DNA of 64,000 nucleotides from Candidatus Amesbacteria bacterium RIFCSPLOWO2_01_FULL_48_25 (GCA_001773695.1 MEXN01000005.1:3687-67686), one strand, 5' to 3'. Numbered from the stretch's first letter, positions 10,352 through 41,833 are shown. Notes: generated by a model not told the origin, from the letters alone. Program-made: numbers and translations.

Positions 10352-11242
10352 TTGACAACAGGTGGGGAGTTGATCCAATATGGAGTTGCGACGCATATGC
10401 GAGATAAAAAAGTGGTAGCGGGTGTGGGTTTGGCAGTATTAGTGTTTGGAGTGGCGGTGGGGGTGAGTTTGGTGCAGCAGAGGTTGGACATTAGGAAGAA
10501 GGCGGCGGGGGGAGCGGCTTCGTATTTGAAGCTGGAAAAAACATTTACGGTGAATCCGGCAGTTGGAACACTATTTGATGTATATGTGACTTTAAATACC
10601 GACGGGGTGGCGGTGGGGGCGGTAGATGCGGTGGTTAATTTTAGCCGGGGAGCGTTGGAACTGGTGGATGTGATAGTGACACCTAGGACAGGTAATGCTG
10701 GGGGTGAGCTGCGGGCGTTTTTGCCGGTAACTGGGACGACGACCAAAACATTTGATAAAGTAAAAGTGGTTGCCCAGGCAAATACTACCGGGGGAATTGT
10801 GTTGGGGGCGGTGGCGCAAGACTTAAATACTGGGGCTGTGCTTAGTGGCTTTAACGGGAGTTTGGGCACCGGTAACCCATTGGCTGTCTTGCGGTTTAAA
10901 GGGCTGACCGGGGGGACGACTAGTTTGAATTGGCAATATTCCACTGGGGCGACGAATGACACCAATATGGTAAGCGTATCGTCGCCGACGGATATTTTGG
11001 CAAGTGTAGCAGGATTGAGTGTGACGGTGGCTTCGTCTGTCACCGGGACGCCAGTGCCTCCACCTACGGGAGCGTTTCTAGTTGGGGATATTAATAGGGA
11101 CGGGTGTGTCAACGTCCAGGATTACATACTGCTCTCTAATGCCTACGGGACGAATAACTCGGCTGCAGATTTGAATGGGGATGGGATAGTCAATGTCCAG
11201 GATTACATATTGTTAAGCAACAACTTTGGCCGATGTTCGTGA
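10352..11242 (+). CDS. membrane-anchored (N-terminal TM) cohesin-like domain protein with C-terminal type-I-like dockerin
   Basis: TM 'VVAGVGLAVLVFGVAVGV'; cohesin-like beta-sandwich segment 'FTVNPAVGTLFDVYVTLNTDGVAVGAVDAVVNF'; duplicated Ca-binding dockerin 'GDINRDGCVNVQDYILLS...LNGDGIVNVQDYILLS'. Likely true start Met at ~10397. Confidence 0.6.
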   Translation: MTTGGELIQYGVATHMRDKKVVAGVGLAVLVFGVAVGVSLVQQRLDIRKKAAGGAASYLKLEKTFTVNPAVGTLFDVYVTLNTDGVAVGAVDAVVNFSRGALELVDVIVTPRTGNAGGELRAFLPVTGTTTKTFDKVKVVAQANTTGGIVLGAVAQDLNTGAVLSGFNGSLGTGNPLAVLRFKGLTGGTTSLNWQYSTGATNDTNMVSVSSPTDILASVAGLSVTVASSVTGTPVPPPTGAFLVGDINRDGCVNVQDYILLSNAYGTNNSAADLNGDGIVNVQDYILLSNNFGRCS

Positions 11243-11266
11243 AAAAGATCATATTGACAAGCGATT

Positions 11267-12883
11267 ATGAATAGTAGCACTATGGATAGTATGCGAGATT
11301 TGTTGAGGCGGCATTTGCTGGCTGCACTAGTCATTTTGCTGATGCTGCCGCTGGGAGTGATTTTGGCGCTGCGGCAGACGAGGTTGGGGAGTAAGGCAGC
11401 GGGCACGGCAATATTGTCAATTGCGCCTACTAATGTGCTGATAGCTCCGAACACGGCGGGGACGTTTGATGTCTTTTTGGATCCGCGGGGTGAGAATGTG
11501 GCGGGGATGGATGTGACGATTAGATACGATTTTAATGTGATTGGGGTAACCGACGTAACGCCGGGGGCGTTTTTCAACTCAGCTGCAGGGAGTCCTCAGG
11601 TGCTTCTTAAGGATATTACTACTGAACCGGGAATTGTCAGATATTCGGTGGCCTTTCCTTTGGGGAGCCAGGTGACTTCTTCTACAGCTGGGGTGGCGGC
11701 TACTATACGTTTTACGAGCCGGACGGCTGGTTCGACTGTGCTTGATATCTTGAGTGTATATGGGACGTTTAGGACAGTGGTGACTAACGGTCTGGGGGCG
11801 GATGTGTTGGGGACTATTAATGATGGAAATCTGATTGTGAACGGTCCGCCTACCGGTCAGGGTAGACTGTATTTTGCTGGTCCCAATCCGGCTAATCCTC
11901 AGGCAATTGGTACTACCTTTAATATGGAGGTGCGGGCGGGTACTGGAGGCCAGAGTATTGATGGCCTGGATGCAAGAATTAGATTTGACTCTAACGTGAT
12001 GAGGGTAGTGAGTTTGTCCCAAGGACCGGTTTTCGCTTCGTATCCGGCGATAACATATTGTAATGCCAACCAGACGTGTGCTGCTGGCATGGTGCCGGGG
12101 CAGATAGAAATATCGGCTAATATTGGGAGTGGTGACACTGCTACGCCGGTTAACGGGGATCCGGTGATAGTCGCTGGTATAGTATTTATGCCGTTTGCTA
12201 ACACTGCCGGGACGAGTATTTCATATCTTTTTAATGGAGTGGGGGACAGGAACGACAGTAATATGGTGTTGTATGGCTCGGGTACGCTCCAGGATCCGAT
12301 TGATATACTGGGTTCGGTGACAAATGCCAATATCGTAATCGGAGAAGGGGGGGCTACTCCCACCAATACGCCGGTCCCGACTGTGACTGGGGCGCCGACG
12401 CTAACGCCAACGCCGGGAGCGGGATTGGTGACTTTCAGGTTTGCTTTCGAAGGAAGATTGCGGGCAGGCGTGAGCCGGGCTAAGACTGTGACTGTTATCA
12501 AACGGACGCTGCCTACTGGGACTGAGACTATATCTACGGTAAACACGAATTCAAATGGCGAGGCAGCAATCAGTGTTTCGCCTGGCAGCTATATCTTTTA
12601 TGCCGATACGGCTGGTTATCTGAAACGTAGATTTGGAACGCTGACTTCCCCTGTAGTCATTGCGACGGGGCAGACGGTGGTGGACTTTACGAGCACCCCA
12701 CTTAAGGGAGGGGATTTGACGAGCGATGGAATAGTGAATGCGGTTGACTATACGTCGGTGTTCTTGCAAGCCTTCTTGAGTACTAATCAGACAGTGGATT
12801 TGGACGGCAGCGGGCTGGTTAATAATTTGGACTTCAGCATCATGAGAAGGAACTGGTTCCAGGTAGACGATATATTGCAATAA
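11267..12883 (+). CDS. N-terminal TM protein with two cohesin-like modules, Pro/Thr linker, and C-terminal dockerin
   Basis: TM 'LLAALVILLMLPLGVILAL'; two 'ap-x-ag-tfdv...d-x-v-g-d-v..f' cohesin-like segments; C-terminal 'GDLTSDGIVNAVDY...DLDGSGLVNNLDFSIM' dockerin repeats. Confidence 0.6.
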   Translation: MNSSTMDSMRDLLRRHLLAALVILLMLPLGVILALRQTRLGSKAAGTAILSIAPTNVLIAPNTAGTFDVFLDPRGENVAGMDVTIRYDFNVIGVTDVTPGAFFNSAAGSPQVLLKDITTEPGIVRYSVAFPLGSQVTSSTAGVAATIRFTSRTAGSTVLDILSVYGTFRTVVTNGLGADVLGTINDGNLIVNGPPTGQGRLYFAGPNPANPQAIGTTFNMEVRAGTGGQSIDGLDARIRFDSNVMRVVSLSQGPVFASYPAITYCNANQTCAAGMVPGQIEISANIGSGDTATPVNGDPVIVAGIVFMPFANTAGTSISYLFNGVGDRNDSNMVLYGSGTLQDPIDILGSVTNANIVIGEGGATPTNTPVPTVTGAPTLTPTPGAGLVTFRFAFEGRLRAGVSRAKTVTVIKRTLPTGTETISTVNTNSNGEAAISVSPGSYIFYADTAGYLKRRFGTLTSPVVIATGQTVVDFTSTPLKGGDLTSDGIVNAVDYTSVFLQAFLSTNQTVDLDGSGLVNNLDFSIMRRNWFQVDDILQ

Positions 12884-13743
12884 TGGTCAGGGTAGGCTTA
12901 TGGTTGGCGGTGACGGTCTTTTTGGTGGGAGGGCTGGTGGGTACGGCCGGGGCGGCAGCAGAGCCGAGCTTAGGGTTTGTACCGGTTTCGAAGGTAATTA
13001 AGGTGGGGGAGAGGTTTACGGCTCAGATAGTAATGGATACTGCGGGAGCTGAAGTGGGAGGGGCGGATATGATGCTAGTTTACGATCCGGAGAAGGTAAC
13101 TGTGGTGGAAGTGGTGCCGGGGACTTTATTTGATGATTATCCAATTGCCGCATTTGATAACGAAACGGGTAAAATATCTTTTTCCGGGATTGTTTCATCC
13201 AAAGACAGGTTGTATAGCGGGAGGGGAACTTTGGGATCGGTTACATTTATGGGGCGGGCGGCGGGGGTGAGCATTGTCAAGTTTGAATTTACGCTGGGAG
13301 ATACCCGGGATTCGAATATAGCCGTGACTTATGAGCCGGGGGATATTTTAGCTAAGGTTGATAATTTGACGATAGTAGTTGGGGGCGGCGACGAAGTAGT
13401 GGAGGCGGAAGTGACCCCAACGCCGGCTGGGAATGTGAGTCCAACCCCCACACCGGTGGTTGGATTGTGGGACCGGGTGCTTATAGCACTAGGCTTAAAG
13501 AGCGGGCAGGGGTATCCCGGCGATCTGAATGGCCCGTTGGTGTCCCAGGCGCCCAAGAGAGATTTGGGGGCTACCGAGCCGGCAATGGAGACAGTGGGAG
13601 GTCAGGGGGGTAAGTTGTGGATGTGGTGGGTGCTACTGGCGCTGGTTTTGATCCTAATAATAGTGATAGGGGTAATATGGTGGAGGAGACGGCGTCGTGA
13701 AAGAAAAGAGAAGCCGGTTGTAGGAGGTACGCTTGGGAAGTGA
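12883..13743 (+). CDS. secreted cohesin-domain protein with Pro/Thr linker and C-terminal TM anchor plus poly-Arg stop-transfer (anchoring scaffoldin-like)
   Basis: signal peptide 'MVRVGLWLAVTVFLVGGLVGTAGAAA'; cohesin-like 'VPVSKVIKVGERFTAQIVMDTAGAEVGGADMMLVYDPEKVTVVEVVPGTLFDDYP'; C-terminal 'WWVLLALVLILIIVIGVIWWRRRRRERKEK'; start overlaps previous stop (ATAATG). Confidence 0.6.
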   Translation: MVRVGLWLAVTVFLVGGLVGTAGAAAEPSLGFVPVSKVIKVGERFTAQIVMDTAGAEVGGADMMLVYDPEKVTVVEVVPGTLFDDYPIAAFDNETGKISFSGIVSSKDRLYSGRGTLGSVTFMGRAAGVSIVKFEFTLGDTRDSNIAVTYEPGDILAKVDNLTIVVGGGDEVVEAEVTPTPAGNVSPTPTPVVGLWDRVLIALGLKSGQGYPGDLNGPLVSQAPKRDLGATEPAMETVGGQGGKLWMWWVLLALVLILIIVIGVIWWRRRRRERKEKPVVGGTLGK

Positions 13744-14246: not shown

Positions 14247-15281
14247 CTAGAGAAAATAGGTGGAGAGGGCGAAGCGGTATTGATCTATCAACAACCTTTT
14301 GATGTGGTAGAGATTGTTGGTTTCAAAAAACAAAATTAGGGCTTGTTTATACTCGTTTTCATCAATGTTCCGATACGAAAGAGGGTAGTAGTCATGGGCA
14401 ATCAAGACTGCGTTTGAAAGCATACGGGAGGTTCGCTTGTTGCCATCCGCGAACGGCTGGAGATAAGAAATTATGGCTGAAATGACCAGAGCTTTTTCCA
14501 AGGGAAATCGGATTTGGTTAACACAATCTAAAACCCGTTTGAAATATTCGGTGATTTGCCACTGATTATCCGGGGGTAGATAAGCGGTTCCCGAGATGCC
14601 TACCTGAACCTGACGAATACCCGTTGAAATATTCAGACCTGACGTTAAGGAGTTGTGCAGTTGGAGAACTGAAGACGGGGAGAGTTGTTTAAAGTCATGG
14701 GGATTTTGCAATATAGTTTCAAAAGCCGCTTTATGATTAAGAATCATGGTTGCGTCGTATAAAGATTTGCCCCGGGCTTGCCTGGCGTCTTTTATTAATC
14801 CCTCAGTTTCTAAAAGAGTGTAGGTATTGCCTTCAATTTTGGAAGATTTCCAAGATAGTTCAATGACAAATCTTTCGAGTTCCCGATAATTTGGTTTTTT
14901 GGGGAAGGGTTTGTAAATATGTTCAAGTTCTGTAAATTCTTCCGTGGTGAACAAACCGGGCAGTTGAGTAAATATTACCGGGTTGAATTGTTTTTGGACG
15001 TTTGGACGCTGGTCCGGATCAAGCTCGAAGTATCCGGCTAAGTTTATCGGTTTTAGCAGGGGGTGAGTGGAAGGAATAAAATATGAGGTGTTTCGGCCAG
15101 CTCCCCGGCCTTGGATTTGGCCGGTGGATATGAGATGTTTCAGGTCGCGGACGAGAGTGGGCTTGGAAACCGGGTAGACCGAAGCCAAAAGGGAGGACAG
15201 TTCCGCCCTGGTGGCCTGATCTTTTGTGCCTAGTATGCCAAGAATTTTTTGCAGCCTGGGAGTGTTTTTCGTCTCATTCAT
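14247..15281 (-). CDS. Fic/Doc-family protein (AMPylase-type fold) with N-terminal winged-helix
   Basis: Fic motif 'QPFADGNKRTSR' (HPFx[DE]GNGR-like, His replaced by Gln in my reading of the ORF-track protein); N-terminal HTH 'ATRAELSSLLASVYPVSKPTLVRDLKHL'. Confidence 0.8.
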   Translation of the reverse strand: MNETKNTPRLQKILGILGTKDQATRAELSSLLASVYPVSKPTLVRDLKHLISTGQIQGRGAGRNTSYFIPSTHPLLKPINLAGYFELDPDQRPNVQKQFNPVIFTQLPGLFTTEEFTELEHIYKPFPKKPNYRELERFVIELSWKSSKIEGNTYTLLETEGLIKDARQARGKSLYDATMILNHKAAFETILQNPHDFKQLSPSSVLQLHNSLTSGLNISTGIRQVQVGISGTAYLPPDNQWQITEYFKRVLDCVNQIRFPLEKALVISAIISYLQPFADGNKRTSRMLSNAVLIAHDYYPLSYRNIDENEYKQALILFFETNNLYHIKRLLIDQYRFALSTYFL

Positions 15282-16473: not shown

Positions 16474-16630
16474 ACAGGGCAGGATACGTTCATGTAAACT
16501 GAACGTATCAGGCTACAATTCAGGCTCGTTGTTTAAGCGAGGCAAGGTGGGCAGGATGGCTTGCTACGTTCACGAGCGGAGCGAGCTGAATGTAGCAGGC
16601 CTGGATGGAAAGTATTCGAACCTGGTACGC

Positions 16631-16954
16631 TCAAATTTGAATAGCTGGAGGGTTAGTGGATCTAATGGCTCCGAGGGTAGTAAGGGGTGAGGCTGAAGCG
16701 TATTCTTCCGGCGTTACTCCATAGGCGTGCAGGTCATAAGGGAAGCCAACGCTAGCACGGTAGATGATTTTTAGTCTGGAATCCGGGTCGTATTTGGAGA
16801 AATCGGATGATAGGATAAGCAGATCCACATCGCTGTCTTCTTTGTTGGTGCCGGCTGGTAGTGAGCCGTACAAGATGGCTTGGTCCACGGAGACATACTT
16901 TTGTAGGCGGCCTAGGTATTGTTTGATTAGTGGGGTAATTGTTGTTTGATCCAT
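16631..16954 (-). CDS. nucleotidyltransferase-domain protein (antitoxin-like partner of HEPN); start at internal Met with strong RBS
   Basis: 'LYGSLPAGTNKEDSDVDLLIL' GS-X9-DxD motif; minus-strand AGGAGG-N7-ATG at ~16955-16970 (MDQTTITPL...); the longer track ORF (to 17047) overlaps the HEPN gene. Confidence 0.7.
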   Translation of the reverse strand: MDQTTITPLIKQYLGRLQKYVSVDQAILYGSLPAGTNKEDSDVDLLILSSDFSKYDPDSRLKIIYRASVGFPYDLHAYGVTPEEYASASPLTTLGAIRSTNPPAIQI

Positions 16955-17307
16955 ATAAAAACCTCCTGGGTTTTGGAGTAAGTAGGCTCGACTGATTCTT
17001 TGGAGGTGTAAACGAACCTTTGGAAGTCGGGATAGCGGACACGCCAAAAGTGGCGGGTAATTTCTGCTAGGTCTTCAAGCCAAATTTCAGGGAATTTTAA
17101 TGTGGTTTGACGAGCCAGAGCATCCAGATTATGGGATTTGGGTGGAAGCTGGTTTGCAAACTGGACGATGCAGCCCTTTAGTAACTTTTCTAGAGCTTGG
17201 TGGCAGCAGTAGACGGCCATAGAGTATCTGGAACCGTTGTAAAGAAATTCAGCGTCTTTTAGACTTTCTTCGGCTTGATCCAGCCACGTCTTGGCTTCGT
17301 CTTTCAT
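16927..17307 (-). CDS. HEPN-domain protein
   Basis: four-helix pattern with 'RYPDF' / 'HQALEKLLKG' typical of HEPN partners of minimal NTases; gene order HEPN-NTase, overlapping. Confidence 0.65.
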   Translation of the reverse strand: MKDEAKTWLDQAEESLKDAEFLYNGSRYSMAVYCCHQALEKLLKGCIVQFANQLPPKSHNLDALARQTTLKFPEIWLEDLAEITRHFWRVRYPDFQRFVYTSKESVEPTYSKTQEVFIWIKQQLPH

Positions 17308-19181: not shown

Positions 19182-20135
19182 ATGAATTCTCCTGTTAGGA
19201 AAGTCAGCAAGCCAAATACACCAATTCTTTGGTTTGATACGGGGTTTATTTGGAGTCGCCGAAACGATTTAAATTTTTGGCAACAACTCTCCACTGTCAT
19301 TTTGGGTAGGAAAGTAATTGTGGTTGACACTGGGCAGTTCACAGAAATACAGGAGCGTTATTCATCGAAATTTACTATGAATCCAGAGTCGGAACTCTTG
19401 CTTAGACGGTATGAACTCTTAGTTCAAGACTACTCTTCGACGGATCATAACAGTTTTCTTAGTAAACAAATCTCAAGAGCCATGAAAGCATGTGTCGAGC
19501 AGAAGGACGAAGTAATATATGATTTTTATGATTTGTTTGACCCACTAATTAACTTTTTGACGCCTTTTTTGGATATCCAAAATAGATTATTTAAGAGAAG
19601 GTGGGGTACTCCAAGTGCTTTCAAATCACTTAGTAAAAGCATGGCCGATGATTGGGAATCCCTAGGTAGTCAAGCTAAATCTAAGAGGATTAGCCTTTTG
19701 AAACAGCGAGAGCTAGAGTTACTTGGTCTTCACGAAGCTCTTAAGAAGGTGATTGAATCCGGTGACCAAGTTAAGATGGAAAACTTAGTGAAACATCACT
19801 TAAGGAATTGGGAAAATGCATCAGGTGAAAGCAGTATTGATTCAATGCTTGGATTTTTCAAGTCGCCATATTACAAGACTATTCCTTATATTGAAATTCA
19901 TTCTTGGCTCATTTCTGACCTAATGACATCTAACAAATCAAGGAAATTTAATCGGGGGGACTACTTTGATGTTGTAATGATTTCTATGATGTACCCTTTT
20001 GCAGATTATATGGTGGTGGATAATGATATGAGGGATCGTATTGTTGATAAGCTTAAATTCTCTAAGAGGTACCCAGAGTTTACATGCAGTCTGATAGCTC
20101 CTGGAGAAGTGGATGAATTGTTAAGAAAACTATGA
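19182..20135 (+). CDS. hypothetical protein (317 aa), no recognisable motif
   Basis: long ORF only. Confidence 0.45.
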   Translation: MNSPVRKVSKPNTPILWFDTGFIWSRRNDLNFWQQLSTVILGRKVIVVDTGQFTEIQERYSSKFTMNPESELLLRRYELLVQDYSSTDHNSFLSKQISRAMKACVEQKDEVIYDFYDLFDPLINFLTPFLDIQNRLFKRRWGTPSAFKSLSKSMADDWESLGSQAKSKRISLLKQRELELLGLHEALKKVIESGDQVKMENLVKHHLRNWENASGESSIDSMLGFFKSPYYKTIPYIEIHSWLISDLMTSNKSRKFNRGDYFDVVMISMMYPFADYMVVDNDMRDRIVDKLKFSKRYPEFTCSLIAPGEVDELLRKL

Positions 20136-20334
20136 CTGACTTTTTAGGGATAGAGGGTTTCATTGCTCAATTTTAGTACTTTGTACTGCCAAATAGGGGG
20201 TATGGCCGCAAATGAGCCTCGTCGGGTAGGAGATATACTACTTCCCTCCTCCTAATACGAAGATTGGATTTTTAGAAAAAAGTCGGGTCTTACGGTTAGT
20301 CTATGAGACTGTAGTTAAACAGTGAAAGAGTAAC

Positions 20335-21033
20335 TTAAGATTTTATTTCCATGTCAGAATCGTTTGTTGTAGGTATAGAAGTAGGAGTGGGAGAATAGTA
20401 TTCAGGAATATTCATGTTCTCTTCAGGACAGTCTGGAGGAGGAACTTGGGCAAAGTACTTTCTCCAGTCCTTTATTTCCAGCCCCTTATCAAACGCATCA
20501 AAGTATAAATCTTGGTTTGCCCACCTTTCCTCCTGGAACTTACTCATTAATTCTGTTGGACTACCTTCAAACTGGAATTCCGTGCCGGTTTCTTTGGCCT
20601 TGTCTCCTGCTTTATTCATATCGCTGACTACCTTGTAATATTTGTAATACGCTTCATACATGGCTAGCTGATACTTCCCGGCAGTCTTTACGTAATCAGG
20701 AGCAAGAAGTTTGAAATCCCAGCGATTCATAAAGGCACTTTGTTTGTCTAACCAGTTTCTCTCCAGCTCGATATACTTGTCGGCAGAAGTTAAGAGTACA
20801 CCAAGGTCGCCGCTAAACTGCTCAGCAGATGGTGTTGCTCGACCTGACACAGCAGCTCCAAGTGCCAGATGAGTATTTCTGACTTTGATAAGAGTGGGAT
20901 TCACGCTGTTGCAGCGATCGTTGAATAATTTCCAACCCTCTATGGCCAACGAGTGGTATTTGTATGTGTATATACCAAGTCCTAACGCTCCAACTAATAA
21001 AGTTGCCAATATAAATTTAAATATCAGTTTCAT
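20335..21033 (-). CDS. hypothetical N-terminally anchored/secreted protein (232 aa)
   Basis: N-terminal TM/signal 'FKFILATLLVGALGLGIY'; flanked by ~50-bp imperfect direct repeats. Confidence 0.45.
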   Translation of the reverse strand: MKLIFKFILATLLVGALGLGIYTYKYHSLAIEGWKLFNDRCNSVNPTLIKVRNTHLALGAAVSGRATPSAEQFSGDLGVLLTSADKYIELERNWLDKQSAFMNRWDFKLLAPDYVKTAGKYQLAMYEAYYKYYKVVSDMNKAGDKAKETGTEFQFEGSPTELMSKFQEERWANQDLYFDAFDKGLEIKDWRKYFAQVPPPDCPEENMNIPEYYSPTPTSIPTTNDSDMEIKS

Positions 21034-21325
21034 AAATTATGGGTAGATTCTAACACTCTAGGGTCAGTTTACGGTATACAATTTGTTTTGGATGGTTGTC
21101 ATTGCAGAGGGGGGTATACCCGCAAAATGAGCCTCTTCCCCACGAGGTACTTCCTCCTACCCAAACACATCTTTCAGACAGTTTTCTAATTTCAAAAAAA
21201 GGATGCTTATTTTCCAAAATCAAATACCACCCTATATTTTTTGGAAAAATAACAATTTTCCAATTAGTAAAGTATTTATTTTCTATGGCTAACCTGAGCC
21301 TGTCTAATTGATCTATAATTAACCT

Positions 21326-21796
21326 ATGAAAAATAAAGTTAAACCGACAGAGAAACAGAAACTTGCAGTGATGGGGATATTGCAAGGCAAGTCAGCCAGA
21401 AGAGCCATGATTGACGCTAAGTATACGGAGGTATCAGCATCACACCCTAAGCAGAACCTCATCGACAGGCCAGGGGTGCAGTCCTATGTGGCAAAACTGG
21501 ACAAGGCCTCCCAGGCAAAGTTTGGCATATCCCTGGAAAGTAAGATGATTGACACCACTCTGGAAGGCCTGGAAGCCACCAAGCTATTCGGGAAGGATGC
21601 AGTAAAGCATCCGGACTGGGGATCCAGATATAACTTCCTGAAACTGGTGAGTGATGTCACTGGTAAAACTAAATCCTCAGAGCCAACCTCAGAAACAAAC
21701 CAGCAATATAATTTCTTCCAAGTCAACACAGTCGAACGAGAGGCTTTCCATAATAAATTGAAGGAGTTTTTAAGGAAGAATAATGACAAAGAATAA
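21326..21796 (+). CDS. phage terminase small-subunit-like protein (HTH N-terminus)
   Basis: N-terminal 'PTEKQKLAVMGILQGKSARRAMIDAKYTEVSA' resembles TerS/P27-family DNA-binding region; moderate. Confidence 0.4.
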   Translation: MKNKVKPTEKQKLAVMGILQGKSARRAMIDAKYTEVSASHPKQNLIDRPGVQSYVAKLDKASQAKFGISLESKMIDTTLEGLEATKLFGKDAVKHPDWGSRYNFLKLVSDVTGKTKSSEPTSETNQQYNFFQVNTVEREAFHNKLKEFLRKNNDKE

Positions 21797-22347
21797 AAGC
21801 GGTTGCGGTTCAAAGGGGGAAGAAAGGTGAGCGTGGGGACAGAGCTACCGCTGTGTGCAAACTTTTCTAATTATTACTTTAACAAGAAAGTTTTACTATT
21901 TATTTTGCTTCTTTCCTTTTATAAGTTGGCATAAAATACAATTCTGCTTCCACTTCCTTATTCTTTTTCTCCAAATACAGCTCCGGGTTTTGCTTAACCA
22001 TCTCCACCAACTCGCTCACAATATTGTTCAGACTGATTAAAAACACCAGCTTCTTCTTCTTCTTTTGTGGCGGTTCTACTGTCTGGTCTTTTGGAAGTTT
22101 GTGAGCCTTTTCTCACTGTGACTTAGACATTCCCGTAAACATCTGAAAACCCGCTATACCGTCTTTTCCAATTAGGTCTTCCATAAGTTGCTTCATACGG
22201 CTCATGCTGCCTCCTTTTTTGGATATTCCGGTTTTTTCCGAAAGAAAATTACCTGTGTTTTATCAGATTCCCTTTCCTCAAGTAGTCTTCCCTCTTCCTT
22301 TGCTTTTTTGTTTAATTTATCAATGAATTGCTGAGTAGTAAGTTTTT

Positions 22348-22560
22348 TCACTCGTATCCTTTCTCATCCAGACATCTTTTTCTAAGACTTTGATACTGAT
22401 CGAATGTAAAACTCGCTCCCTTTGAAATTGCAGTATTTGCTAGATCAGAGGCATATTTCCAACACACTTTTCTGTCTTCGGTTGGCCGCCATTGGAACCA
22501 ATAAAACAATCCAGTTAGTAAAAGTAGGATAAGAATAGTTAATAATTCCTTATATTTCAT
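22348..22560 (-). CDS. small single-TM protein, paralog of 22575..22889 (shared 'FYWFQWR' juxtamembrane motif)
   Basis: 'LILLLLTGLFYWFQWRPTEDRKVCWKY' vs neighbour 'VWFYWFQWRTSKIRKECYQK'. Confidence 0.45.
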   Translation of the reverse strand: MKYKELLTILILLLLTGLFYWFQWRPTEDRKVCWKYASDLANTAISKGASFTFDQYQSLRKRCLDEKGYE

Positions 22561-22574
22561 TTATAACTTAAAAA

Positions 22575-22889
22575 TTATATTTTCATTCCATTTTTGAGTA
22601 AACATTGGTTGTACCAACCCTCTACTGTTTTTTGTGAAGTTAAACGGTGCCACCAGCCCCATTTGGCATCCCAGCGGTCTTGCAATGGGTTTGGCATCCA
22701 ATCTTTTCCCCAGGCCCACTTGTCGTCTCCGCTCCGATTACTTTCATTTCTATATTCGTCTATAGCGAAGGATTTTTGGTAACACTCTTTCCTAATTTTT
22801 GAAGTTCGCCATTGAAACCAGTAGAACCATACGGAAGCAGCAATAACTAGTAGGGCAAGAATTAAATAGACCGGCCCATTGTTTTTCAT
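22575..22889 (-). CDS. small single-TM, Trp-rich protein, paralog of 22348..22560
   Basis: see paralog; Trp-rich ectodomain 'DKWAWGKDWMPNPLQDRWDAKWGWWHR'. Confidence 0.45.
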   Translation of the reverse strand: MKNNGPVYLILALLVIAASVWFYWFQWRTSKIRKECYQKSFAIDEYRNESNRSGDDKWAWGKDWMPNPLQDRWDAKWGWWHRLTSQKTVEGWYNQCLLKNGMKI

Positions 22890-23010
22890 GGAAGTATTGA
22901 GAGTATTTTACCATTATTGGCTGATTATTGGGAATTATGCAGAACTAATGCTGAATAATTACAAGGTTTTTTGTCCACAGTGATAAAATCGGCAAAGATG
23001 AAGATTAAGT

Positions 23011-23463
23011 ATGAAAATGGATATCAATAGCCATCTGTCCTATCTTTCCTATAAAGAGGATTGCTTGAAAAAAGGGATAGTCCCTGAACCTGAAATCCCC
23101 TTAGAAATAAGTAATAATCCATACGTTCTTGGTTCCAAGGCCGATATTTACCCAGCACAAGAAGTATTACCTTCCAATACAATATCCAAACGATTTATGG
23201 GGGAGAACAGGCAAAAGATTATTGCCCTCATTGAAAACTCAGGTTTGAAAAGGAAAAACCAGATCAAAGTTTATTTGAATAGGCTCAGCGGCTTCGATTA
23301 CGTAGCTGTGGGTGGACTTATAGGAAAGAAATACCAGCCAAAAAACCGGTCCAGCCTAAGAAATTTGGAGTTTAGAGTTAGGAAATTTCTTAAACCAGGT
23401 TTTTATATAGAAACCGAGAAAAATAAGCCTTACCGAAGAAAGTTGATTTCTCTAACTGATTAA
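23011..23463 (+). CDS. hypothetical protein (150 aa)
   Basis: ORF only. Confidence 0.35.
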   Translation: MKMDINSHLSYLSYKEDCLKKGIVPEPEIPLEISNNPYVLGSKADIYPAQEVLPSNTISKRFMGENRQKIIALIENSGLKRKNQIKVYLNRLSGFDYVAVGGLIGKKYQPKNRSSLRNLEFRVRKFLKPGFYIETEKNKPYRRKLISLTD

Positions 23464-24100
23464 TTTCGAGAGAAAATAATACTTAGCTTCATTTCTTCTG
23501 CGTAATCTAATACCACCCTCCCTGGATTTTTTGAAAATAGCCTTGATTTCTAACGCTTCCAGTAGTGACTTCTAACTTTTGACCCGATTATCCTGTGGAA
23601 ATATGAATATGGGTGAATCATCAAATGTTTATGAAAGTGAAGACGAGCAAATTGCACCGATTTTGTTGACACGTCTGGGAAGAAATGTAACCGATGAAGA
23701 GGTGGTTGAGGCTAAATTTAATTTAAGTGGTTTTGCCAAAGTGTTGTTAAAGATGGCGATGGAGAGGAAGTATGGAAGGGCTAATAATTAGAGTCGTTAT
23801 TCCCATCTCTGATTTCCCCAGATTCAGGATTTCTAACCCTTTTACTGGCAGGGTGTCGTATCGGAAAACTATACGGGGAACATGGGACCTTCTGGAAAAG
23901 CGTTTTACCTCCGTTTGCAAGGCTGGCTCGGGGCATAAAACGGCTGTTTTGGTAAAAGATGGCTTGGGACACATCAACGAAACTTATGAGAGTTCAAATC
24001 CCGGATACCTGGGCTTTGCGGCGAGGTGCTTCTTGGAAGAGTTTATGAAATCCGGTATGCGGAGGAGGTTGGAGGTTGACTATCCACCTACTGATGAAAT

Positions 24101-24331
24101 ATGAATAGCTATAAAACCAAAGATTTGTATGAGGCGGCGTTGCTGTATGCAATTGGTGTACGACTGACTGGACTTGAGGGAGAGCCTAGACAGTTATGGT
24201 TTGTGTTTGAGAGACGGGAGGATACACAGCGATTGGCAGATTCCTACTGGGCAGGGGAGGTGAAGGTTGTAGCCAAACGATATGCCGATGCTATTCGATC
24301 GTTAAAGGATAGGTTGTTTGCGAGGGGGTAG
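24101..24331 (+). CDS. small hypothetical protein typical of phage/mobile-element cargo (76 aa)
   Basis: ORF; start overlaps previous ORF stop (ATGA). Confidence 0.35.
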   Translation: MNSYKTKDLYEAALLYAIGVRLTGLEGEPRQLWFVFERREDTQRLADSYWAGEVKVVAKRYADAIRSLKDRLFARG

Positions 24332-24339
24332 AGATTAGT

Positions 24340-24702
24340 ATGGAGATGAATATAAAAAGAATTGCTTTTCAGGACTGGCGAATAGAAACGCTGGAAATTC
24401 AGATTAGGCCGGTGGTGAGAGGGGATAAGATAAGAGCGTTTGTGGTTTGGACTTTCAAGACTTCGAAGGGAGATTTGAAAATAAGAGGCGGGACAATCAA
24501 ATTAAAAGAGTTGCCAAGTGGAGAGGAGCTGCTATCGTTTGACGCTCCGGCATATAGAGCTGGCCCTCGATATTTCAAGTCCTTTTTTCTGGAAAGCGAT
24601 GAGTTTCGTCGGATTTGTGCGGAAACGGTTAAGTTTTACTGTGAACAAACCGGCGAGGTTCCGCCGAATTATATTTTTTTGGATGGAGATGGCCAGAGAT
24701 AG
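24340..24702 (+). CDS. SpoVG-like small beta-rich protein (tentative)
   Basis: 'IETLEIQIRPVVRGDKIRAFVVWTFKTSKGDLKIRGGTIK' loosely resembles SpoVG fold sequences; weak. Confidence 0.3.
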   Translation: MEMNIKRIAFQDWRIETLEIQIRPVVRGDKIRAFVVWTFKTSKGDLKIRGGTIKLKELPSGEELLSFDAPAYRAGPRYFKSFFLESDEFRRICAETVKFYCEQTGEVPPNYIFLDGDGQR

Positions 24703-24811
24703 TAACCATAATAGTAACTATATGGTAACGGTGACTATATGGTTACAGTAGCTATCTCTTGTAAGAAATGAGTATTAGTTATATAACAGTATTAGTGTTT
24801 TAGAACTGAAG

Positions 24812-26362
24812 ATGAATATGAAAGCGGTACTGTATGCCAGGGTGTCCAGTAGAGAGCAGGAGCAGGGGTATTCATTGGCGGCACAGACAAAGTTGATTAA
24901 GGATTATGCGGAGAGGAACGGTGTTGAGATAATTAGACAATTTGTTTGTTCAGAAAGTGCAAAGGAGGATGGTAGGAAGGTATTTTCCGAGATGGTTGAG
25001 TTTCTAAAAACGAAGCCAGACGTGGAGCTTTTGCTATGCGAGAAGGTCGATAGACTTCTAAGGGGGAATCTGAAAGACAGAGTAGAAGTGGACGACTTGG
25101 TGAGTAAGTATGAAAAGAAAGTAGTGTTTGTAAAGGATGGCACGTCCTACTCTGGGGATTCAAAATCGACGGAAAAATTGACTTATGGAATTCAGGCAGA
25201 GCTGGCGAGGTTTTACCTAAATAACTTGTCTGATGAAGTGAAAAAAGGTTTGACGGAGAAGGCGTCCAGGGGTGAGTATCCGGGTACTCCGCCGTTTGGC
25301 TACGTGAGGAAGGAGGGTAAGATTTTAGTGCATCCGGAGACTTCGGTGGCAGTGAGAAAGGCGTTTGAGTGGTACGCCTCCGGTTCTTACTCGATAAGGC
25401 AGCTTAGGAATAAGCTGGTTGCGGAAGGGTTGGCAACTAAGCTAAACAAGGGGATATTGGGAAGCAGCGATGTGGGCCACATGCTAAGAAATCCGTTTTA
25501 CTATGGGGAGTTTAGGTGGAATGGGAAGGTTTACCCCAGTAACAGTACTTATGAACCGTTGATGAGCAGGGATTTGTGGAATAGAGTGCAGGAAACATTA
25601 GATGAGCAGAATAAACCCAGGACTCGGAGGCATAACTTTAACTTCACCATGTTGTTGCGATGTGGGGAGTGCGGGTACAGCGTGACGGCGGAGAAGAAGA
25701 CTAAATTTTACAAGAAGACTGACAGGAAGGCCGAATACACTTACTATCATTGCACTAGGCCCGATTACGGACGGATAAAATGCCATCAGAAGCCAATTAC
25801 GGAGGAGGAGATGGTGGGCCAACTTACTGGAATTGTGGATTCCATTTCAATTACGGAGGAAGTGGTGGAATTGATGAAAAGTATTCTGCGAAAGGGAGTT
25901 GATGAGGAGCACGTGTATCACACTCAAGCCATTGAAGCTCTAAGTCAGAGATATAAGGAATTTCAGGAGAAAAAGCGGAGGTTGCTGGATGGGTATTTGG
26001 ATGGTGCCGTTAAAGAGGCAACATACCAGGAGAAGGATGAGGAATTGGAAAGGGAACTAAGGGAGGTCGTGGCTCAAAGAGAGAAGCACGAAAGTGGAAA
26101 TAGAGTCTACTATGAGCAAATTGAGAATTTCATTGAAGTGTGCCACCGGGCTCCGGAACTATTCAGAAGTTCCAGTCCTAAGCTAAAACGGGAACTTTTG
26201 AGGTATGTTGTATCGGACCTCCGGTTGATAGACGGAAAAGTCCTATGTACCTACAAATTTCCGTTCTCGGAACTTCTGAAAACAAAGGAAAATGGTAATT
26301 GGCAGGGGCGGAAGGAATCGGACCTTCGTCATTGGTTTTGGAGACCAAGAGCCTACCACTGA
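24812..26362 (+). CDS. large serine recombinase (resolvase/invertase N-domain + recombinase domain + zinc-ribbon + coiled coil)
   Basis: 'AVLYARVSSREQEQGYSLAAQ' catalytic-Ser motif; 'LLRCGECGYSV...YYHCTRPD' zinc ribbon; long coiled-coil C-terminus. Confidence 0.85.
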   Translation: MNMKAVLYARVSSREQEQGYSLAAQTKLIKDYAERNGVEIIRQFVCSESAKEDGRKVFSEMVEFLKTKPDVELLLCEKVDRLLRGNLKDRVEVDDLVSKYEKKVVFVKDGTSYSGDSKSTEKLTYGIQAELARFYLNNLSDEVKKGLTEKASRGEYPGTPPFGYVRKEGKILVHPETSVAVRKAFEWYASGSYSIRQLRNKLVAEGLATKLNKGILGSSDVGHMLRNPFYYGEFRWNGKVYPSNSTYEPLMSRDLWNRVQETLDEQNKPRTRRHNFNFTMLLRCGECGYSVTAEKKTKFYKKTDRKAEYTYYHCTRPDYGRIKCHQKPITEEEMVGQLTGIVDSISITEEVVELMKSILRKGVDEEHVYHTQAIEALSQRYKEFQEKKRRLLDGYLDGAVKEATYQEKDEELERELREVVAQREKHESGNRVYYEQIENFIEVCHRAPELFRSSSPKLKRELLRYVVSDLRLIDGKVLCTYKFPFSELLKTKENGNWQGRKESDLRHWFWRPRAYH

Positions 26363-26759
26363 CTGACGCCCCTATGATGATAGGATTTTAGCATTTTTGA
26401 CGGTGGGCTTGACGGGTGGAGTAAGATTGAGAATGTGGCGTGTGGGCTAATAGCCATTGCATCGGCTAAGTAGGGGGAGTAGTATTCTGGCTGGTGGGAG
26501 CAGAGATTACTTGTCAGAGAGTGTGGATTTCAAGGTTGGATATAGCAAAGTTGCTGCGGGCTTTATGGGGGCAGGGAGACGATAAAGCGGTGCGGGCGGC
26601 GAGGATTTTGAACCAAGTGAGGATGGTTCGGGAAGAGTGTCCGTTGGCTGGGAAGAATGGATGTGATCCGGCGAAATGCCCGGCGGGGTACATAGTGGAG
26701 ATGGGTAGGGAGTGATTTTGGTGTTGACAAATGTTAATCAGTGAGAGATTATTGCAGCC

Positions 26760-29626: not shown

Positions 29627-32329
29627 TTAATTCGTGACGAAGAACCAAACTTTGGCTACACCAGAGGCTCGGTTTTGGATGCCGCTTGGTCCACATATTA
29701 AAGGAATGTTGCATGTGGTTAAGTGGGTTTCAGAATCATCCGAGGTGGCAGCGATGGAATGCCAGCCATTTTGAAGTTTATTAAGATCGATTAGGACAGG
29801 CTGGAGTGATGTTATATTCCCAGGTTGAGCTAGAAGCACTAAACCAGCGCGGGCTTGAACCTGGGGCCAAGTTCCGGTCGCGGGAATAGCGTGACTTTTG
29901 TCCATTGCAATTGTGAGTTTGCTACTAGTTTCTTGAGAGGCTCTTGCTCGGAAGGTATAACCTGATGGGTAAGCACTCTTTGAAAGTGGCCTAAGAGGCA
30001 CACAGTCTATCACGGCGACAGTATATCCGGCGTCTGTATACCAACCTCTTCCTGAAAAAGACGAATATCTAGTTGATCCGGGGCCGGGATTATTACAAAG
30101 CATTTGACCAGTAACAGCGTCGGCGTGGGCCGTGTCTGATGTACTACCATTTGCTACTTGAAAAGGAACTGCGCTGGAATTGAGGAATTCCTTGCCGTCA
30201 AGAGTATGTGAAACCGAGCGGAGTCTGAATTCGTGCCATTGATTACTCAAGCTGTTGGTATCAAAGTTTACATCGAAGTTAAATGCACAGTTTGTGCTAA
30301 TTGAACCGTCGTATGGACATCTGGTATTTGTACTAACATAACGTCTTGTATGACTTTCGTCATAAACCTCGACCGTTGATAAAGTACTAGGGTTATCGTG
30401 CATGACGATACGGATGTTGAAGTTCATGGTTCCTGTAACCTGTTGACCCAAAGGAACATTAGCGGCCCAGTGCACATGTCCGTAACTTGGCATCCACCAG
30501 CCTTGCAGTTCGATTGGAATTCTTCTTTGATCAAAAGCTACTTGGCCATTGACAAGGTAAGGGGGCGACTCGGCACACCAGAGGCCACCGCAGTCTGATG
30601 TTGACCCGGGTGGGGGGTTTGGAAAGGTGCCGGGGGGGAGAGTGGGGCCGGGGGTGGAGGTGGGACCAGATGTCGGAATGGGGGTGGGGGTACGAGTAGG
30701 TGTGGGGATACTAGTGGTGGGGGTAGGACCGGTAGAAGTCGGGGTGGGGGAAGAGGGGGGAGAGGGAAGGAAATTGACACGCCAGATGAGGTAGTCAACC
30801 CCATTGACCATTGAGTCGGTGTTGAAGTCGGCTGGCGAAGTAGTTAGGCCGTAGTCGCGAGCCCAAAGGCCCAGATCTACTAGATCCACATCCCCATCGT
30901 GATCGGCGTCACCTGGGAGAAATGAGGAGGTGGGGGCGGGGGATCCGGTAGGAACGGAAGTGGGGGTTGGGGTGGAGAGAGGATTGCCGGAGATGGGAGT
31001 ATTCATGACGGATTGGATTTCGGTGGATGATAACTCGCGGTTGTAAATTCGAACCTCGTCGATGATGCCGGAGAAGAAATCGTTAAAGCTGGAACCCGAT
31101 GGATGAGCACCAATATATATAGTGTCGGTGACCGAGCTAGGTTGGGCCCCAAAGGGAGAGGCGAAAGTAGTGCCCATCCATGTGCCGTCGAGATAAGCTC
31201 GGAGATTGCCGGTGCCATCATAAGTTACCGCCAGATGGTGCCATTGGTTATTGGGAATTGTGCCGGACCAGATATCATCCCGGGTGCCGTCGTAGAAGCC
31301 GACTTGGCCGTTGGCCAGGAAAAAGTGACGGTTGGGGCCGACGGAGACGATGGTTTCCCGAGAGCTGTTAGTGGGATTGTTGATCCAGGCCATAAAGGTG
31401 TAGGGGAGGATAGTAACGGAAGAGTCCTGGGTGCGGCTGGAAGTGCCGTTGAATGATAGGCCATTTGAAAACTTGCCGGTAGTCCAGGTAGTGTTGGAGA
31501 GGGCGGCGTGGCGGGAGTTGCCGGAGGTATCAAAAGCGGTGGTGCCGGAGCCTTCGTTGAAACTGTATGCGGCTAGTTGGTCTGGAGCGGCAGAGTCGGT
31601 ATTGTATTGGTCGGATTTGGCCCACCAGATGAAAGTTGCACTTCCGGGGAAGTCGGCGCGGGGATGGTCGGAGTTGGCGAAGGAATGAATTTGGGCGGCT
31701 TGGGTGTCTGACAAGGTTCCGGTTCCGGCGGCAACCCAATAATAATCGGAATTAGGCTGGCGACCTGAGCCTTGGACAAGGGTAGACCCGATTAGAAACG
31801 GCGCTTGGGCAGGTATGGAGCTGGTAGAGGTGGTAACGAACTGATTTCCATCAACACTGATTTTTAGTTGGGTGGGAGTCCAGGCGGCGATAATGGTTTT
31901 GGTATCGCCGATGCTGAAGGATTGAGTAGCTGATGCGTGGATAGTGCCGCCGGAGCCACTGTTGCGGGCGAAGTGAAACTGATCCGTTCCGACGTCGTAA
32001 TACACAAAGAGGTCCTTGGGGTCAGATTCGCTCATGTCCCAGATGATGGGGTCTGGGGAAAGAGTAGTAGTTGAGGGGAAGCCCACTTTCATTCTCACTG
32101 CGACCCAGCCTTGGGTGGGGTTTATGAGATTTGTTTCCGGGAGCTGGGCGGAGTCGCTACTGCGGGAGATATTGGCGCTGGAGTCGGCGTTGTAAGTGAC
32201 GCCAGAGGTACATAGTGAGCCCGGAGTAGTACAAGACGTTTGGGCCAGAGCGATTTGTGGAGAGAAAAGCTGGGATAAAAGCATGAGGAGACCCGCTAAA
32301 CCTAGGGCAAATACGAGTATCGTTCTCAT
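29627..32329 (-). CDS. giant secreted protein: tandem LamG/concanavalin-like lectin domains, internal dockerin, Pro/Thr linker, C-terminal unknown domain
   Basis: signal peptide; LamG-like 'WINNPTNSSRETIVSVG...WHHLAVTYDGTGNLRAYLDG...IDEVRIYNRELSSTEIQ'; dockerin 'GDADHDGDVDLVDLGLWARDYG...FNTDSMVNGVDYLIW'; PTPT linkers. Confidence 0.7.
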   Translation of the reverse strand: MRTILVFALGLAGLLMLLSQLFSPQIALAQTSCTTPGSLCTSGVTYNADSSANISRSSDSAQLPETNLINPTQGWVAVRMKVGFPSTTTLSPDPIIWDMSESDPKDLFVYYDVGTDQFHFARNSGSGGTIHASATQSFSIGDTKTIIAAWTPTQLKISVDGNQFVTTSTSSIPAQAPFLIGSTLVQGSGRQPNSDYYWVAAGTGTLSDTQAAQIHSFANSDHPRADFPGSATFIWWAKSDQYNTDSAAPDQLAAYSFNEGSGTTAFDTSGNSRHAALSNTTWTTGKFSNGLSFNGTSSRTQDSSVTILPYTFMAWINNPTNSSRETIVSVGPNRHFFLANGQVGFYDGTRDDIWSGTIPNNQWHHLAVTYDGTGNLRAYLDGTWMGTTFASPFGAQPSSVTDTIYIGAHPSGSSFNDFFSGIIDEVRIYNRELSSTEIQSVMNTPISGNPLSTPTPTSVPTGSPAPTSSFLPGDADHDGDVDLVDLGLWARDYGLTTSPADFNTDSMVNGVDYLIWRVNFLPSPPSSPTPTSTGPTPTTSIPTPTRTPTPIPTSGPTSTPGPTLPPGTFPNPPPGSTSDCGGLWCAESPPYLVNGQVAFDQRRIPIELQGWWMPSYGHVHWAANVPLGQQVTGTMNFNIRIVMHDNPSTLSTVEVYDESHTRRYVSTNTRCPYDGSISTNCAFNFDVNFDTNSLSNQWHEFRLRSVSHTLDGKEFLNSSAVPFQVANGSTSDTAHADAVTGQMLCNNPGPGSTRYSSFSGRGWYTDAGYTVAVIDCVPLRPLSKSAYPSGYTFRARASQETSSKLTIAMDKSHAIPATGTWPQVQARAGLVLLAQPGNITSLQPVLIDLNKLQNGWHSIAATSDDSETHLTTCNIPLICGPSGIQNRASGVAKVWFFVTN

Positions 32330-41265: not shown

Positions 41266-41299
41266 GATTTGTGCTTGCCCCGAGCGAAGTCGAAGGGTG

Positions 41300-41384
41300 C
41301 CGGGAGCAGGATTCGAACCTACGTAGCCATAAAGGCGCGGCTTTTACAGAGCCGTGTATTTGACCGCTCTACCATCCCGGCTTT
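41300..41384 (-). tRNA. tRNA-Tyr (anticodon GUA) with long variable arm
   Basis: minus-strand read: GCCGGGA-TG-GTAGAGCGGTCAAATAC-ACGG?-CGGCT-CTGTAAA-AGCCG-[long variable arm CGCCTTTATGGCTACGT]-AGGTTCGAATCCT-...TCCCGGC-A; coordinates +/- 3 nt. Confidence 0.65.
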
Positions 41385-41418
41385 GGAGTTAATTTTACAG
41401 CAAAAGTGCTATTATTGA

Positions 41419-41751: not shown

Positions 41752-41762
41752 ATTTTTTGAGA

Positions 41763-41833
41763 GCCGCCCCCCAGATTTGAACTGGGAACCTTCGCTTTAC
41801 AAAAGCGTTGCTCAACCGTTGAGCTAGGGCGGC
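41763..41833 (-). tRNA. tRNA-Thr (anticodon UGU)
   Basis: minus-strand read: GCCGCCC-TA-GCTC-AACGGTT-GAGC-A-ACGCT-TTTGTAA-AGCGA-AGGTT-CCCAG-TTCAAAT-CTGGG-GGGCGGC; one non-WC pair at top of anticodon stem. Confidence 0.6.

Follow-up and report, generated by a model that had tools for sequence, protein, structure and literature searches.

A candidate membrane-tethered cohesin-dockerin scaffold encoded around a conserved gene pair in Candidatus Amesbacteria

How do the ultra-small bacteria belonging to the candidate phyla radiation (CPR), whose surface organisation, polymer uptake and means of holding partners are largely unknown and little testable without cultivation, arrange proteins on their cells? 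The question is raised by a 64,000-nt stretch of the Candidatus Amesbacteria genome RIFCSPLOWO2_01_FULL_48_25 (Microgenomates, CPR; MEXN01000005.1:3687-67686; hereafter the window), in which three consecutive genes, encoding proteins that we term P1, P2 and P3, carry cohesin and dockerin modules. An earlier reading of the DNA sequence by itself (the original prediction) had proposed an operon of two adaptors and a membrane-anchored cohesin scaffoldin. Here we present evidence from module content, predicted folds and gene order that points to a membrane-tethered, hierarchical cohesin-dockerin scaffold for surface display, similar to a mini-cellulosome and distinct from a bona fide cellulosome, a reading that we consider probable while leaving appreciable room for doubt.

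Modules, folds and membrane signals of P1, P2 and P3

The three open reading frames (ORFs) are co-directional and lie where they had been placed (Table 1). P1 and P2 are separated by 24 nt, and the start of P3 overlaps the stop of P2 by 1 nt (TAATG at 12881-12885), which suggests translational coupling. The longest P1 ORF begins with TTG at 10352, the start assumed at first, but ATG at 10397 is likelier, given a GGAG 11 nt upstream and its selection by the gene callers and by NCBI (281 amino acids, aa). In NCBI, P1 (A2634_03185) and P3 (A2634_03175) are both annotated as 'hypothetical protein'. P3 recurs in identical form on 20 contigs from several groundwater samples, and the locus is therefore no assembly artefact; these contigs, together with hidden Markov model (HMM) E-values of 1e-7 to 1e-11, also ruled out a chance or non-coding origin. 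A promoter/terminator scan of the sequence gave a number of sites not above that in shuffled sequence.

P2, the candidate primary scaffoldin, opens with a transmembrane helix (residues ~15-38) and the junction RQTRLGSKAA, followed by two cohesins (~45-196 and ~196-363), a Pro/Thr linker (362-385), a small X-like beta-sandwich (~386-473; predicted local distance difference test, pLDDT, >90) and, directly after it, an asymmetric dockerin (~479-538; loops DLTSDGIVNAVD and DLDGSGLVNNLD). The Pfam Cohesin family (PF00963) was matched over two stretches (39.3 bits, E 9.4e-10; cut-off 24.1), and Dockerin_1 scored just under its cut-off of 22.9, at 19.7 bits over the entire protein and 22.8 when only the C-terminal fragment was scored. 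At positions 3 and 5 the P2 loops have T and S, respectively, both of which are tolerated EF-hand ligands, and P2 orthologues have N at position 3. In an AlphaFold2 (AF2) model built from a 30-sequence alignment (pLDDT 88.6), a long helix at the N-terminus is followed by a pair of beta-sandwiches, a Pro/Thr linker that is disordered, another, smaller beta-sandwich and a C-terminal module of two helices, with the dockerin helices at 492-502 and 520-528. The model's best matches in the PDB were CipA Coh9-X-DocII (4fl4, 3kcp) and the cohesin dyad of A. cellulolyticus ScaA (3l8q), at E about 1e-13, and comparison with single cohesins gave TM-scores of 0.73-0.82 at a root-mean-square deviation (rmsd) of about 3 Å. 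A profile of the P2 family likewise matched PDB cohesins (3e-7), the CipA X-DocII region (3.6e-5) and enzyme dockerins (3e-4 to 9e-4, including 2yik at 3.4e-4 and CelS at 8.6e-4). Many family members score best over the unit of X-like sandwich and dockerin (X-Doc; P2 residues 362-538), which is also found on other N-terminal domains.

P3, the candidate anchoring scaffoldin, bears out the layout read from its sequence at the outset, namely a cohesin behind a signal peptide, with a Pro/Thr linker, a C-terminal membrane helix and a poly-Arg tail. A Sec-type signal peptide (residues 1-24, predicted cleavage between AGA and AAEPS) precedes the cohesin (~25-171; 42.5 bits, E 9.6e-11, at the same Pfam cut-off of 24.1), and a stalk (172-244), containing a Pro/Thr stretch and motifs conserved in orthologues, leads to a 23-residue hydrophobic transmembrane helix (245-267) and a basic tail beginning RRRRRERKEK (268-286). 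P3 has no match to surface-layer homology (SLH) repeats in Pfam and no LPXTG-like motif. Two other modes of attachment were considered for P3 and ruled out: a sortase signal, given the missing motif and the 20-40-residue cytoplasmic tails of several orthologues, which are too long, and a PEP-CTERM-type signal, given that there is no PEP motif.

Comparison of the P3 stalk (window 13396-13614) with those of P0003-P0005 and of genes in two related loci (L009 5878-6828 and L012 3427-4338) indicated that it is more than a Pro/Thr linker. Common to the orthologues are an amphipathic (F/W)xRLLxxLGFK-like motif and a DP(H/Y)APxPSQxPxTDP-like motif 25-45 residues before the transmembrane helix. Also identified were two P3-like proteins of sortase type (L011 3611-4387, P0006; and L009 10689-11546), in which LPNTG or LPDSG immediately precedes the hydrophobic C-terminal segment and its basic tail, a signal that the window P3 and most orthologues lack. 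These motifs raise the possibility that the P3 family may switch between transmembrane and sortase anchoring.

P1, the candidate adaptor, consists of a transmembrane helix (residues ~6-26), an R/Q-rich juxtamembrane stretch with a KKAA end, a cohesin (~39-216, with a low-confidence insertion at 98-128), a short Pro-rich linker and a symmetric dockerin (228-279; calcium loops DINRDGCVNVQD and DLNGDGIVNVQD). The dockerin scored above the Pfam cut-off (PF00404, 31.1 bits, E 2.8e-7) and aligned residue for residue, with all calcium-ligand positions kept, to the B. cellulosolvens dockerin 2y3n_B (E 7e-7), which the C-terminus of the P1 model also matched in structure (TM-score 0.81, rmsd 1.4). No cohesin match was found in Pfam for the beta-rich part of P1; we assign it as a cohesin because of its alignment to the P3 family (hhalign, 96% probability, E 3.5e-9) and the PDB matches of its AF2 model (pLDDT 70.5), of which the top 28 in Foldseek were all cohesins (TM-scores 0.55-0.71; 0.64-0.71 for the leading matches, among them 1g1k, E 6e-7). 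The beta-rich segments of all three proteins are thus cohesin folds, as was supposed from the sequence, by Pfam for P2 and P3, by profile alignment for P1, and by the cohesin-like models of P1 and P2. The further description of the dockerins as classical duplicated modules applies to P1, which is canonical and symmetric, and less so to the divergent dockerin of P2.

Over the whole window, five cohesins are distributed among four proteins (one each in P1, P3 and an 812-aa protein, and two in P2), and there are four two-loop dockerins (in P1, P2, the 812-aa protein and a 900-aa protein); a custom cohesin HMM and a two-loop regular expression recovered no further cohesins or dockerins in the window. 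In P1 and P2 the dockerin is built of two tandem segments of ~22 residues, each a 12-residue EF-hand-like calcium loop with a helix after it. Calcium-loop positions 1, 3, 5, 9 and 12 are D, N, S or T in 8/8 loops of these four dockerins, and the expectation that the repeats keep their calcium-binding positions therefore holds. The dockerins fall into three classes. Class A, comprising those of P1, of a GH5 enzyme in locus L010 and of an 862-aa glycoside hydrolase (GH)-like protein in locus L008, has the near-identical halves that are a hallmark of dual-binding type I dockerins; where both loops are readable the halves share 16/22 (P1) and 18/22 (L010 GH5) positions, and the L008 dockerin was placed here by similarity (50% identical to P1). 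Class B, that of the P2 family, has halves sharing 5-7/22 positions, is always preceded by the small beta-sandwich, and is 49-76% identical among orthologues; in its asymmetry, placement and conservation it is like X-Doc type II units. Class C occupies an internal position in the 900- and 812-aa proteins, whose dockerins are 81% identical. Similarly, the cohesins group by position rather than by genome, into P3-type (34-44% identity among orthologues), P2-Coh2-type (30-74%) and P2-Coh1-type clusters, with the P1 and 812-aa cohesins as singletons. At the level of sequence, the three dockerin classes and the position-specific cohesin classes suggest matched specificities.

A further shared feature concerns the N-termini of P1, P2 and the 812-aa protein, each of which has a basic N-tail, a transmembrane helix of ~20 residues, ~8 R/Q-rich residues and an S/T-x-A-A/G motif leading into the first cohesin strand (Table 1). 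Among P2-family members, conservation of the Ala is 90% or more, and the Pro that follows is invariant. Within the window this junction occurs only on proteins with a cohesin as first module, and other secreted proteins have ordinary signal peptides. Judging from these features, the junction could be an uncleaved type II anchor or conserved juxtamembrane stalk, or alternatively a distal signal-peptidase site, cut between the two alanines of S-x-A-A. Of the initial description of P1 and P2 as N-terminally anchored, the transmembrane helix is present, but its retention is uncertain for this reason.

Conservation of the P2-P3 gene pair

Word-indexed searches returned almost only self-matches (one protein for P2, six for P3 and three for P1), as if these were orphan genes, a view overturned by exhaustive HMMER searches that recovered 607 cluster representatives of the P2 family at E≤1e-3, of which 55 reached E≤1e-30. 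Among the 150 matches listed, about 40 possess the full layout of transmembrane helix, two cohesins, X-like sandwich and dockerin, at 30-45% identity. In 7/7 loci inspected by hand (the window and L008, L009, L010, L011, L012 and L013), the gene immediately after the P2-type one is of P3 type, encoding a signal peptide, cohesin, stalk, C-terminal transmembrane helix and basic tail; one of these loci, L009, possesses two tandem P2 paralogues. A scan of metagenomes added 72 further loci, from which we counted 32 non-redundant genes ending in X-Doc and having at least 800 nt downstream. An anchor gene was present within 3.5 kb downstream on the same strand in 19/32, directly adjacent in ten, and where the X-Doc gene also carried cohesins it was without exception followed by a cohesin-only gene (13/13), with a C-terminal transmembrane helix in 11 of these 13. 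Several of the related loci derive from 0.1-µm fractions of Hainich groundwater.

Homologue searches detected no P1 orthologues outside its own lineage beyond the dockerin part. The conserved core is therefore the pair of P2 and P3 and not the three-gene set; the operon stands as three co-directional ORFs, with P1 a lineage-specific member. The logic of anchor, adaptor and cargo put forward in the original prediction is nonetheless backed by the synteny of P2- and P3-type genes, the three dockerin classes and the position-specific cohesin classes.

Genes beside the pair, or bearing its type of dockerin, vary among relatives. In L010, a gene encoding a GH5 (cellulase/mannosidase) with a dockerin lies divergent to the pair, and in L008 a DUF5060 GH-like gene with a dockerin lies directly upstream, in the position of P1. 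In distant loci, P2-type dockerins are carried by beta-helix/pectate-lyase-like, FG-GAP, fn3/Ig-like and Amidase_3 (peptidoglycan-amidase) proteins, and by several proteins with no assignable domain. A recurrent three-gene variant was also observed (L025-L028, L058, L065, L071/L073, L074, L076 and L078), in which the order is an X-Doc protein, next a ~200-aa protein that has an N-terminal transmembrane helix and stops just behind its cohesin, and then a ~235-aa protein with a signal peptide, cohesin and C-terminal transmembrane helix.

A candidate surface-display scaffold and its alternatives

In the arrangement that we propose, P3 would be exported by its cleavable signal peptide and held in the membrane by its C-terminal helix and basic tail, displaying a single cohesin on a stalk of about 75 residues. 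The beta-sandwich and dockerin unit of P2 would plug into this cohesin, as the X-dockerin of CipA does into an anchoring scaffoldin, and the two P2 cohesins would take up class-A dockerins, i.e. that of P1 here and those of GH5 or GH-like enzymes in relatives. P1 would offer one more cohesin as an adaptor tier, and the class-C proteins at 29.6-34.8 kb, with a ConA-like lectin domain and a carbohydrate-binding module (CBM) of family CBM96, could be further cargo, probably on P1 or on the 812-aa cohesin; the 812-aa protein is possibly both cohesin carrier and cargo. The net effect would be that the cell surface presents, in a calcium-dependent way, both carbohydrate-binding and hydrolytic proteins, and this might serve the scavenging of polymers, the holding of a partner cell or particle, or both. 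Attachment to a host cell, the role first suggested for this locus, is one possibility only, and the dockerin-bearing GH5 and GH-like enzymes beside the pair in relatives favour work on polysaccharides in at least some lineages.

The functionally closest known system is that of Clostridium (Acetivibrio) thermocellum, with CipA and the anchoring proteins SdbA, OlpB and Orf2p. As in CipA, P2 has tandem cohesins, a beta-sandwich and a C-terminal asymmetric dockerin, the layout of the C-terminal Coh-X-DocII part; P3, a small protein of its own with a single cohesin, is placed as anchor, and both symmetric and asymmetric dockerin styles are present. However, P3 is anchored by a C-terminal transmembrane helix and basic tail instead of SLH repeats; P2 has only two cohesins, no CBM3 and a leader of its own at the N-terminus that is transmembrane or looks uncleaved; the scanned window ORFs included no cellulase; the host belongs to the CPR and has a small genome; and sequence identity to cellulosomal modules is 10-22%. 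The shared N-terminal junction and the non-cellulase cargo are further differences. P1, with one cohesin and one dockerin, has the architecture of the Ruminococcus flavefaciens adaptor ScaC, which it differs from in its N-terminal transmembrane segment. P3 resembles the sortase-attached ScaE of the same species in its order of signal peptide, cohesin, stalk, hydrophobic segment and basic tail, but lacks an LPXTG-like motif, and no sortase was found among the scanned window ORFs of at least 150 aa. There are also likenesses to non-cellulosomal modules, in that the host is no known cellulose degrader, modules are few per genome region, some proteins carry both kinds, and the candidate cargo extends beyond cellulases. 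Known modules of this kind include the Archaeoglobus fulgidus cohesin 2xdh and the GH84C and GH33 cohesins of Clostridium perfringens, and 2xdh, 2w1n, 2jh2 and 2vo8 are among the fold matches. Unlike isolated non-cellulosomal modules, those described here occur together in a conserved cassette of genes that includes an explicit anchor in the membrane, and their dockerins are of three classes or more, as in an organised system of several tiers.

Several considerations weigh against a hierarchy of this kind, which we derive from analogy and synteny. If the N-terminal transmembrane segments of P1, P2 and the 812-aa protein are uncleaved, these proteins would already be membrane-bound and the P3 anchor unnecessary. 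The adaptor tier is not conserved, as P1 is without detectable orthologues outside its lineage, and for 13/32 X-Doc genes a nearby anchor gene is missing. The scanned window ORFs yielded no glycoside hydrolase, in agreement with the initial reading, and the varied cargo of P2-type dockerins in distant loci means that the function cannot be called clearly cellulolytic.

Many cohesins and dockerins called 'non-cellulosomal' are assumed to belong to proteins that act separately. The same might be true here, with P1-P3 being independent membrane-tethered surface proteins that form no hierarchical complex, their cohesins acting as Ig-like spacers or adhesins and their dockerins as tails that bind calcium, glycans or the cell wall. 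Consistent with this, 4/4 cohesin carriers in the window have a transmembrane segment of their own, and retention of the N-terminal segments would favour separate action. Likewise, such modules occur widely without a known partner (Peer et al. 2009, cited in PMC10066038), dockerin-only proteins are essential in a saccharibacterium in a paper whose text mentions no cohesin (PMC10633639), and the X-Doc genes lacking a nearby anchored cohesin gene add to the case. Nevertheless, neither the tight and repeated adjacency of X-Doc and anchored-cohesin genes nor the translational coupling of P2 and P3 is easily explained without a functional link, and three conserved dockerin classes alongside position-specific cohesins suggest matched specificities; we thus judge separate action rather unlikely. 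Another proposal would be a bona fide minimal cellulosome, in which P2 and P3 serve as the frame for dockerin-bearing glycoside hydrolases from elsewhere in the genome, for the degradation of plant or microbial polysaccharide. With two cohesins, P2 has the minimum possible for a multi-cohesin scaffoldin, the dockerin-bearing GH5 of L010 and DUF5060 GH-like protein of L008 stand beside the pair, a cellulosome is the published reading for Ca. Shapirobacterales and Ca. Roizmanbacterium (PMC9123182), and Microgenomates are said to hold more glycoside hydrolases than other CPR (PMC7143001). Three defining features are nonetheless missing within the 64-kb window: glycoside hydrolase cargo, which appears in relatives such as L010; a scaffoldin CBM, there being no CBM match in P1-P3, and CBM96 residing on the separate 812-aa protein; and an SLH or sortase anchor. 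No glycoside hydrolase, cellulose-specific CBM3, SLH or sortase match was obtained in P1-P3 or the scanned ORFs, the dockerin proteins of the window are lectin-like (Laminin_G_3, CBM96) or have no fold assignment, and the P2-type dockerin of distant loci is borne by FG-GAP, Ig-like, beta-helix and peptidoglycan-amidase proteins, among others, which together make a true cellulosome quite improbable.

A different geometry would have P1, P2 and the 812-aa protein in trans or head-to-tail contact, polymerising into surface fibres or a lattice, or bridging cells, with aggregation or attachment as the outcome instead of enzyme display. CPR cells are commonly episymbionts (PMC10633639), 3/4 cohesin carriers in the window also bear a dockerin, and a retained N-terminal helix would force any complex formed in cis with P3 to loop back to the same membrane. 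However, the conserved partner P3 has a cohesin and no dockerin, which fits a terminal anchor and not a polymer. Self-binding, moreover, is avoided in characterised scaffoldins, as exemplified by the type I and type II specificities of C. thermocellum, and contacts of this kind thus appear very doubtful. Broader in scope, and in our estimation unlikely though worth stating, is the idea that Microgenomates, and perhaps other CPR, possess a dedicated membrane-integrated, non-cellulosomal cohesin-dockerin network with the present cassette as its hub, displaying lectins, adhesins and cell-wall hydrolases for attachment to, and feeding on, a host envelope. Every cohesin carrier would then be an integral membrane protein, by way of either an N-terminal helix with the S-x-A-A junction or a C-terminal helix. 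Were this network real, it would give molecular access to the way in which episymbiotic CPR other than Saccharibacteria attach.

That a Microgenomates genome carries such modules is not in itself new, and is less unexpected than was implied at first. Non-cellulosomal cohesins and dockerins occur in all three domains of life (Peer et al. 2009, cited in PMC10066038), and in a saccharibacterium grown in culture a protein with a dockerin domain is essential (PMC10633639). Within the same superphylum, groundwater habitat and Pfam/InterPro-level module content, 'cellulosome' cohesin and dockerin genes have been reported as expressed in Ca. Shapirobacterales BG1-G2 and present in Ca. Roizmanbacterium (PMC9123182). 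Those reports, so far as they could be read, are at the level of annotation and describe no conserved scaffoldin-anchor pair, transmembrane anchoring, junction or dockerin classes; nor did we find a description elsewhere of a conserved scaffoldin-anchor cassette, its transmembrane anchoring, the junction motif or the three dockerin classes.

Cohesins and dockerins are small, soluble, autonomously folding modules whose binding can be measured with recombinant protein, and the window offers a complete 5 x 4 cohesin-dockerin matrix, for which the first prediction is that the X-dockerin of P2 binds the P3 cohesin. Should the proposed hierarchy be correct, the scaffoldin principle would extend to membrane-helix anchoring and non-cellulolytic cargo, and orthogonal binding pairs would become available for protein engineering; should it fail, the modules of the window would be added to the numerous non-cellulosomal ones for which no partner is known.

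Remaining features of the window and related loci

Table 1. Coordinates of the cohesin-dockerin genes and other features in the 64,000-nt window.
Feature	Position	Strand	Description
P1	10397-11242 (longest ORF from 10352)	+	281 aa; candidate adaptor
P1 junction	10412-10510	+	N-terminal helix to first cohesin strand
P2	11267-12883	+	538 aa; candidate primary scaffoldin
P2 junction	11309-11400	+	N-terminal helix to first cohesin strand
P3	12883-13743	+	286 aa; candidate anchoring scaffoldin
Fic/DOC-family protein	14247-15281	-	Directly downstream of the P1-P3 operon
HEPN / nucleotidyltransferase pair	~16600-17300	-	Toxin-antitoxin-like; called as genes on L001, an identical contig
Serine recombinase	24812-26362		Resolvase, Recombinase and Zn ribbon
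tRNA-Trp	26300-26373		On the strand opposite to the recombinase
900-aa protein	29627-32329	-	Secreted; signal peptide with predicted cleavage between ALA and QTS; candidate dockerin-bearing cargo
812-aa protein	32380-34818	-	N-terminal transmembrane helix and junction VRQTQLFKKKAA; cohesin, CBM96, internal class-C dockerin
812-aa junction	34680-34770	-	N-terminal helix to first cohesin strand
994-aa protein	34802-37786	-	Secreted; purple-acid-phosphatase-like (Pur_ac_phosph_N and Metallophos)
T4SS_pilin paralogue	52906-54138	-	410 aa
T4SS_pilin paralogue	54151-55467	-	438 aa

Dockerin proteins had been placed at 29.6-37.8 kb in the original prediction, and two of the proteins encoded there, of 812 and 900 aa, indeed carry a full dockerin. 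In the 812-aa protein, a cohesin (residues ~48-237), scoring at the Pfam gathering cut-off of 24.1 bits, is followed by CBM96 (248-397), the dockerin (~420-470) and a C-terminal domain (~500-812). The 900-aa protein has a Laminin_G_3 / ConA-like lectin domain (299-439) before its dockerin (~472-522), and again a C-terminal domain beyond; neither C-terminal domain gave a match in PDB sequence searches or Pfam. The third, 994-aa protein has a single isolated dockerin/EF-hand-like loop, DQNGDFKVNSLD, with no dockerin at E≤0.01 and no match to the two-loop regular expression, and its membership of the cohesin-dockerin system is doubtful on account of having only one loop. It also possesses a Cys-rich N-terminal region, long Pro/Thr linkers and two domains without assignment.

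Among the related loci, three (L007, L008 and L009, corresponding to CAZLQM01, CAYUGO01 and CAYRUS01) were obtained by scanning genome collections with a 3-sequence alignment. Their records are titled 'uncultured Gammaproteobacteria bacterium', yet they carry the Microgenomates-type cohesin cassette. L007 and L008 have a GC skew of about -0.4, which is Microgenomates-like, and given both the cassette and this extreme skew, the gammaproteobacterial label is probably wrong.

The window itself has a GC skew of +0.27 to +0.45 per 2 kb (+0.31 overall), whichever strand carries the genes, with exceptions to this extreme skew at 20001-24000 and 40001-42000. A disparity between G and C has been described for complete genomes of the Microgenomates order UBA1400, for which near-unidirectional replication was proposed (PMC7143001).

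Other genes of the window include housekeeping neighbours (DprA, ComM-like, NusG, L11, Ddl, CofD-like, MreB, PBP2, TopA, ThyX, SHMT and FolD), the Fic protein, an ATPase of PilB type and a pair of long T4SS-pilin-like proteins. The latter are tandem paralogues with an N-terminal T4SS_pilin domain (residues ~21-92), for which the Pfam model spans 71 positions, and each continues for more than 300 residues without a family match. Finally, a low-GC (0.39-0.41), zero-skew run of hypothetical genes at ~20000-26400 ends at a large serine recombinase, the 3' end of which overlaps the gene for tRNA-Trp on the opposite strand, and the region as a whole looks like a mobile element integrated at a tRNA gene.

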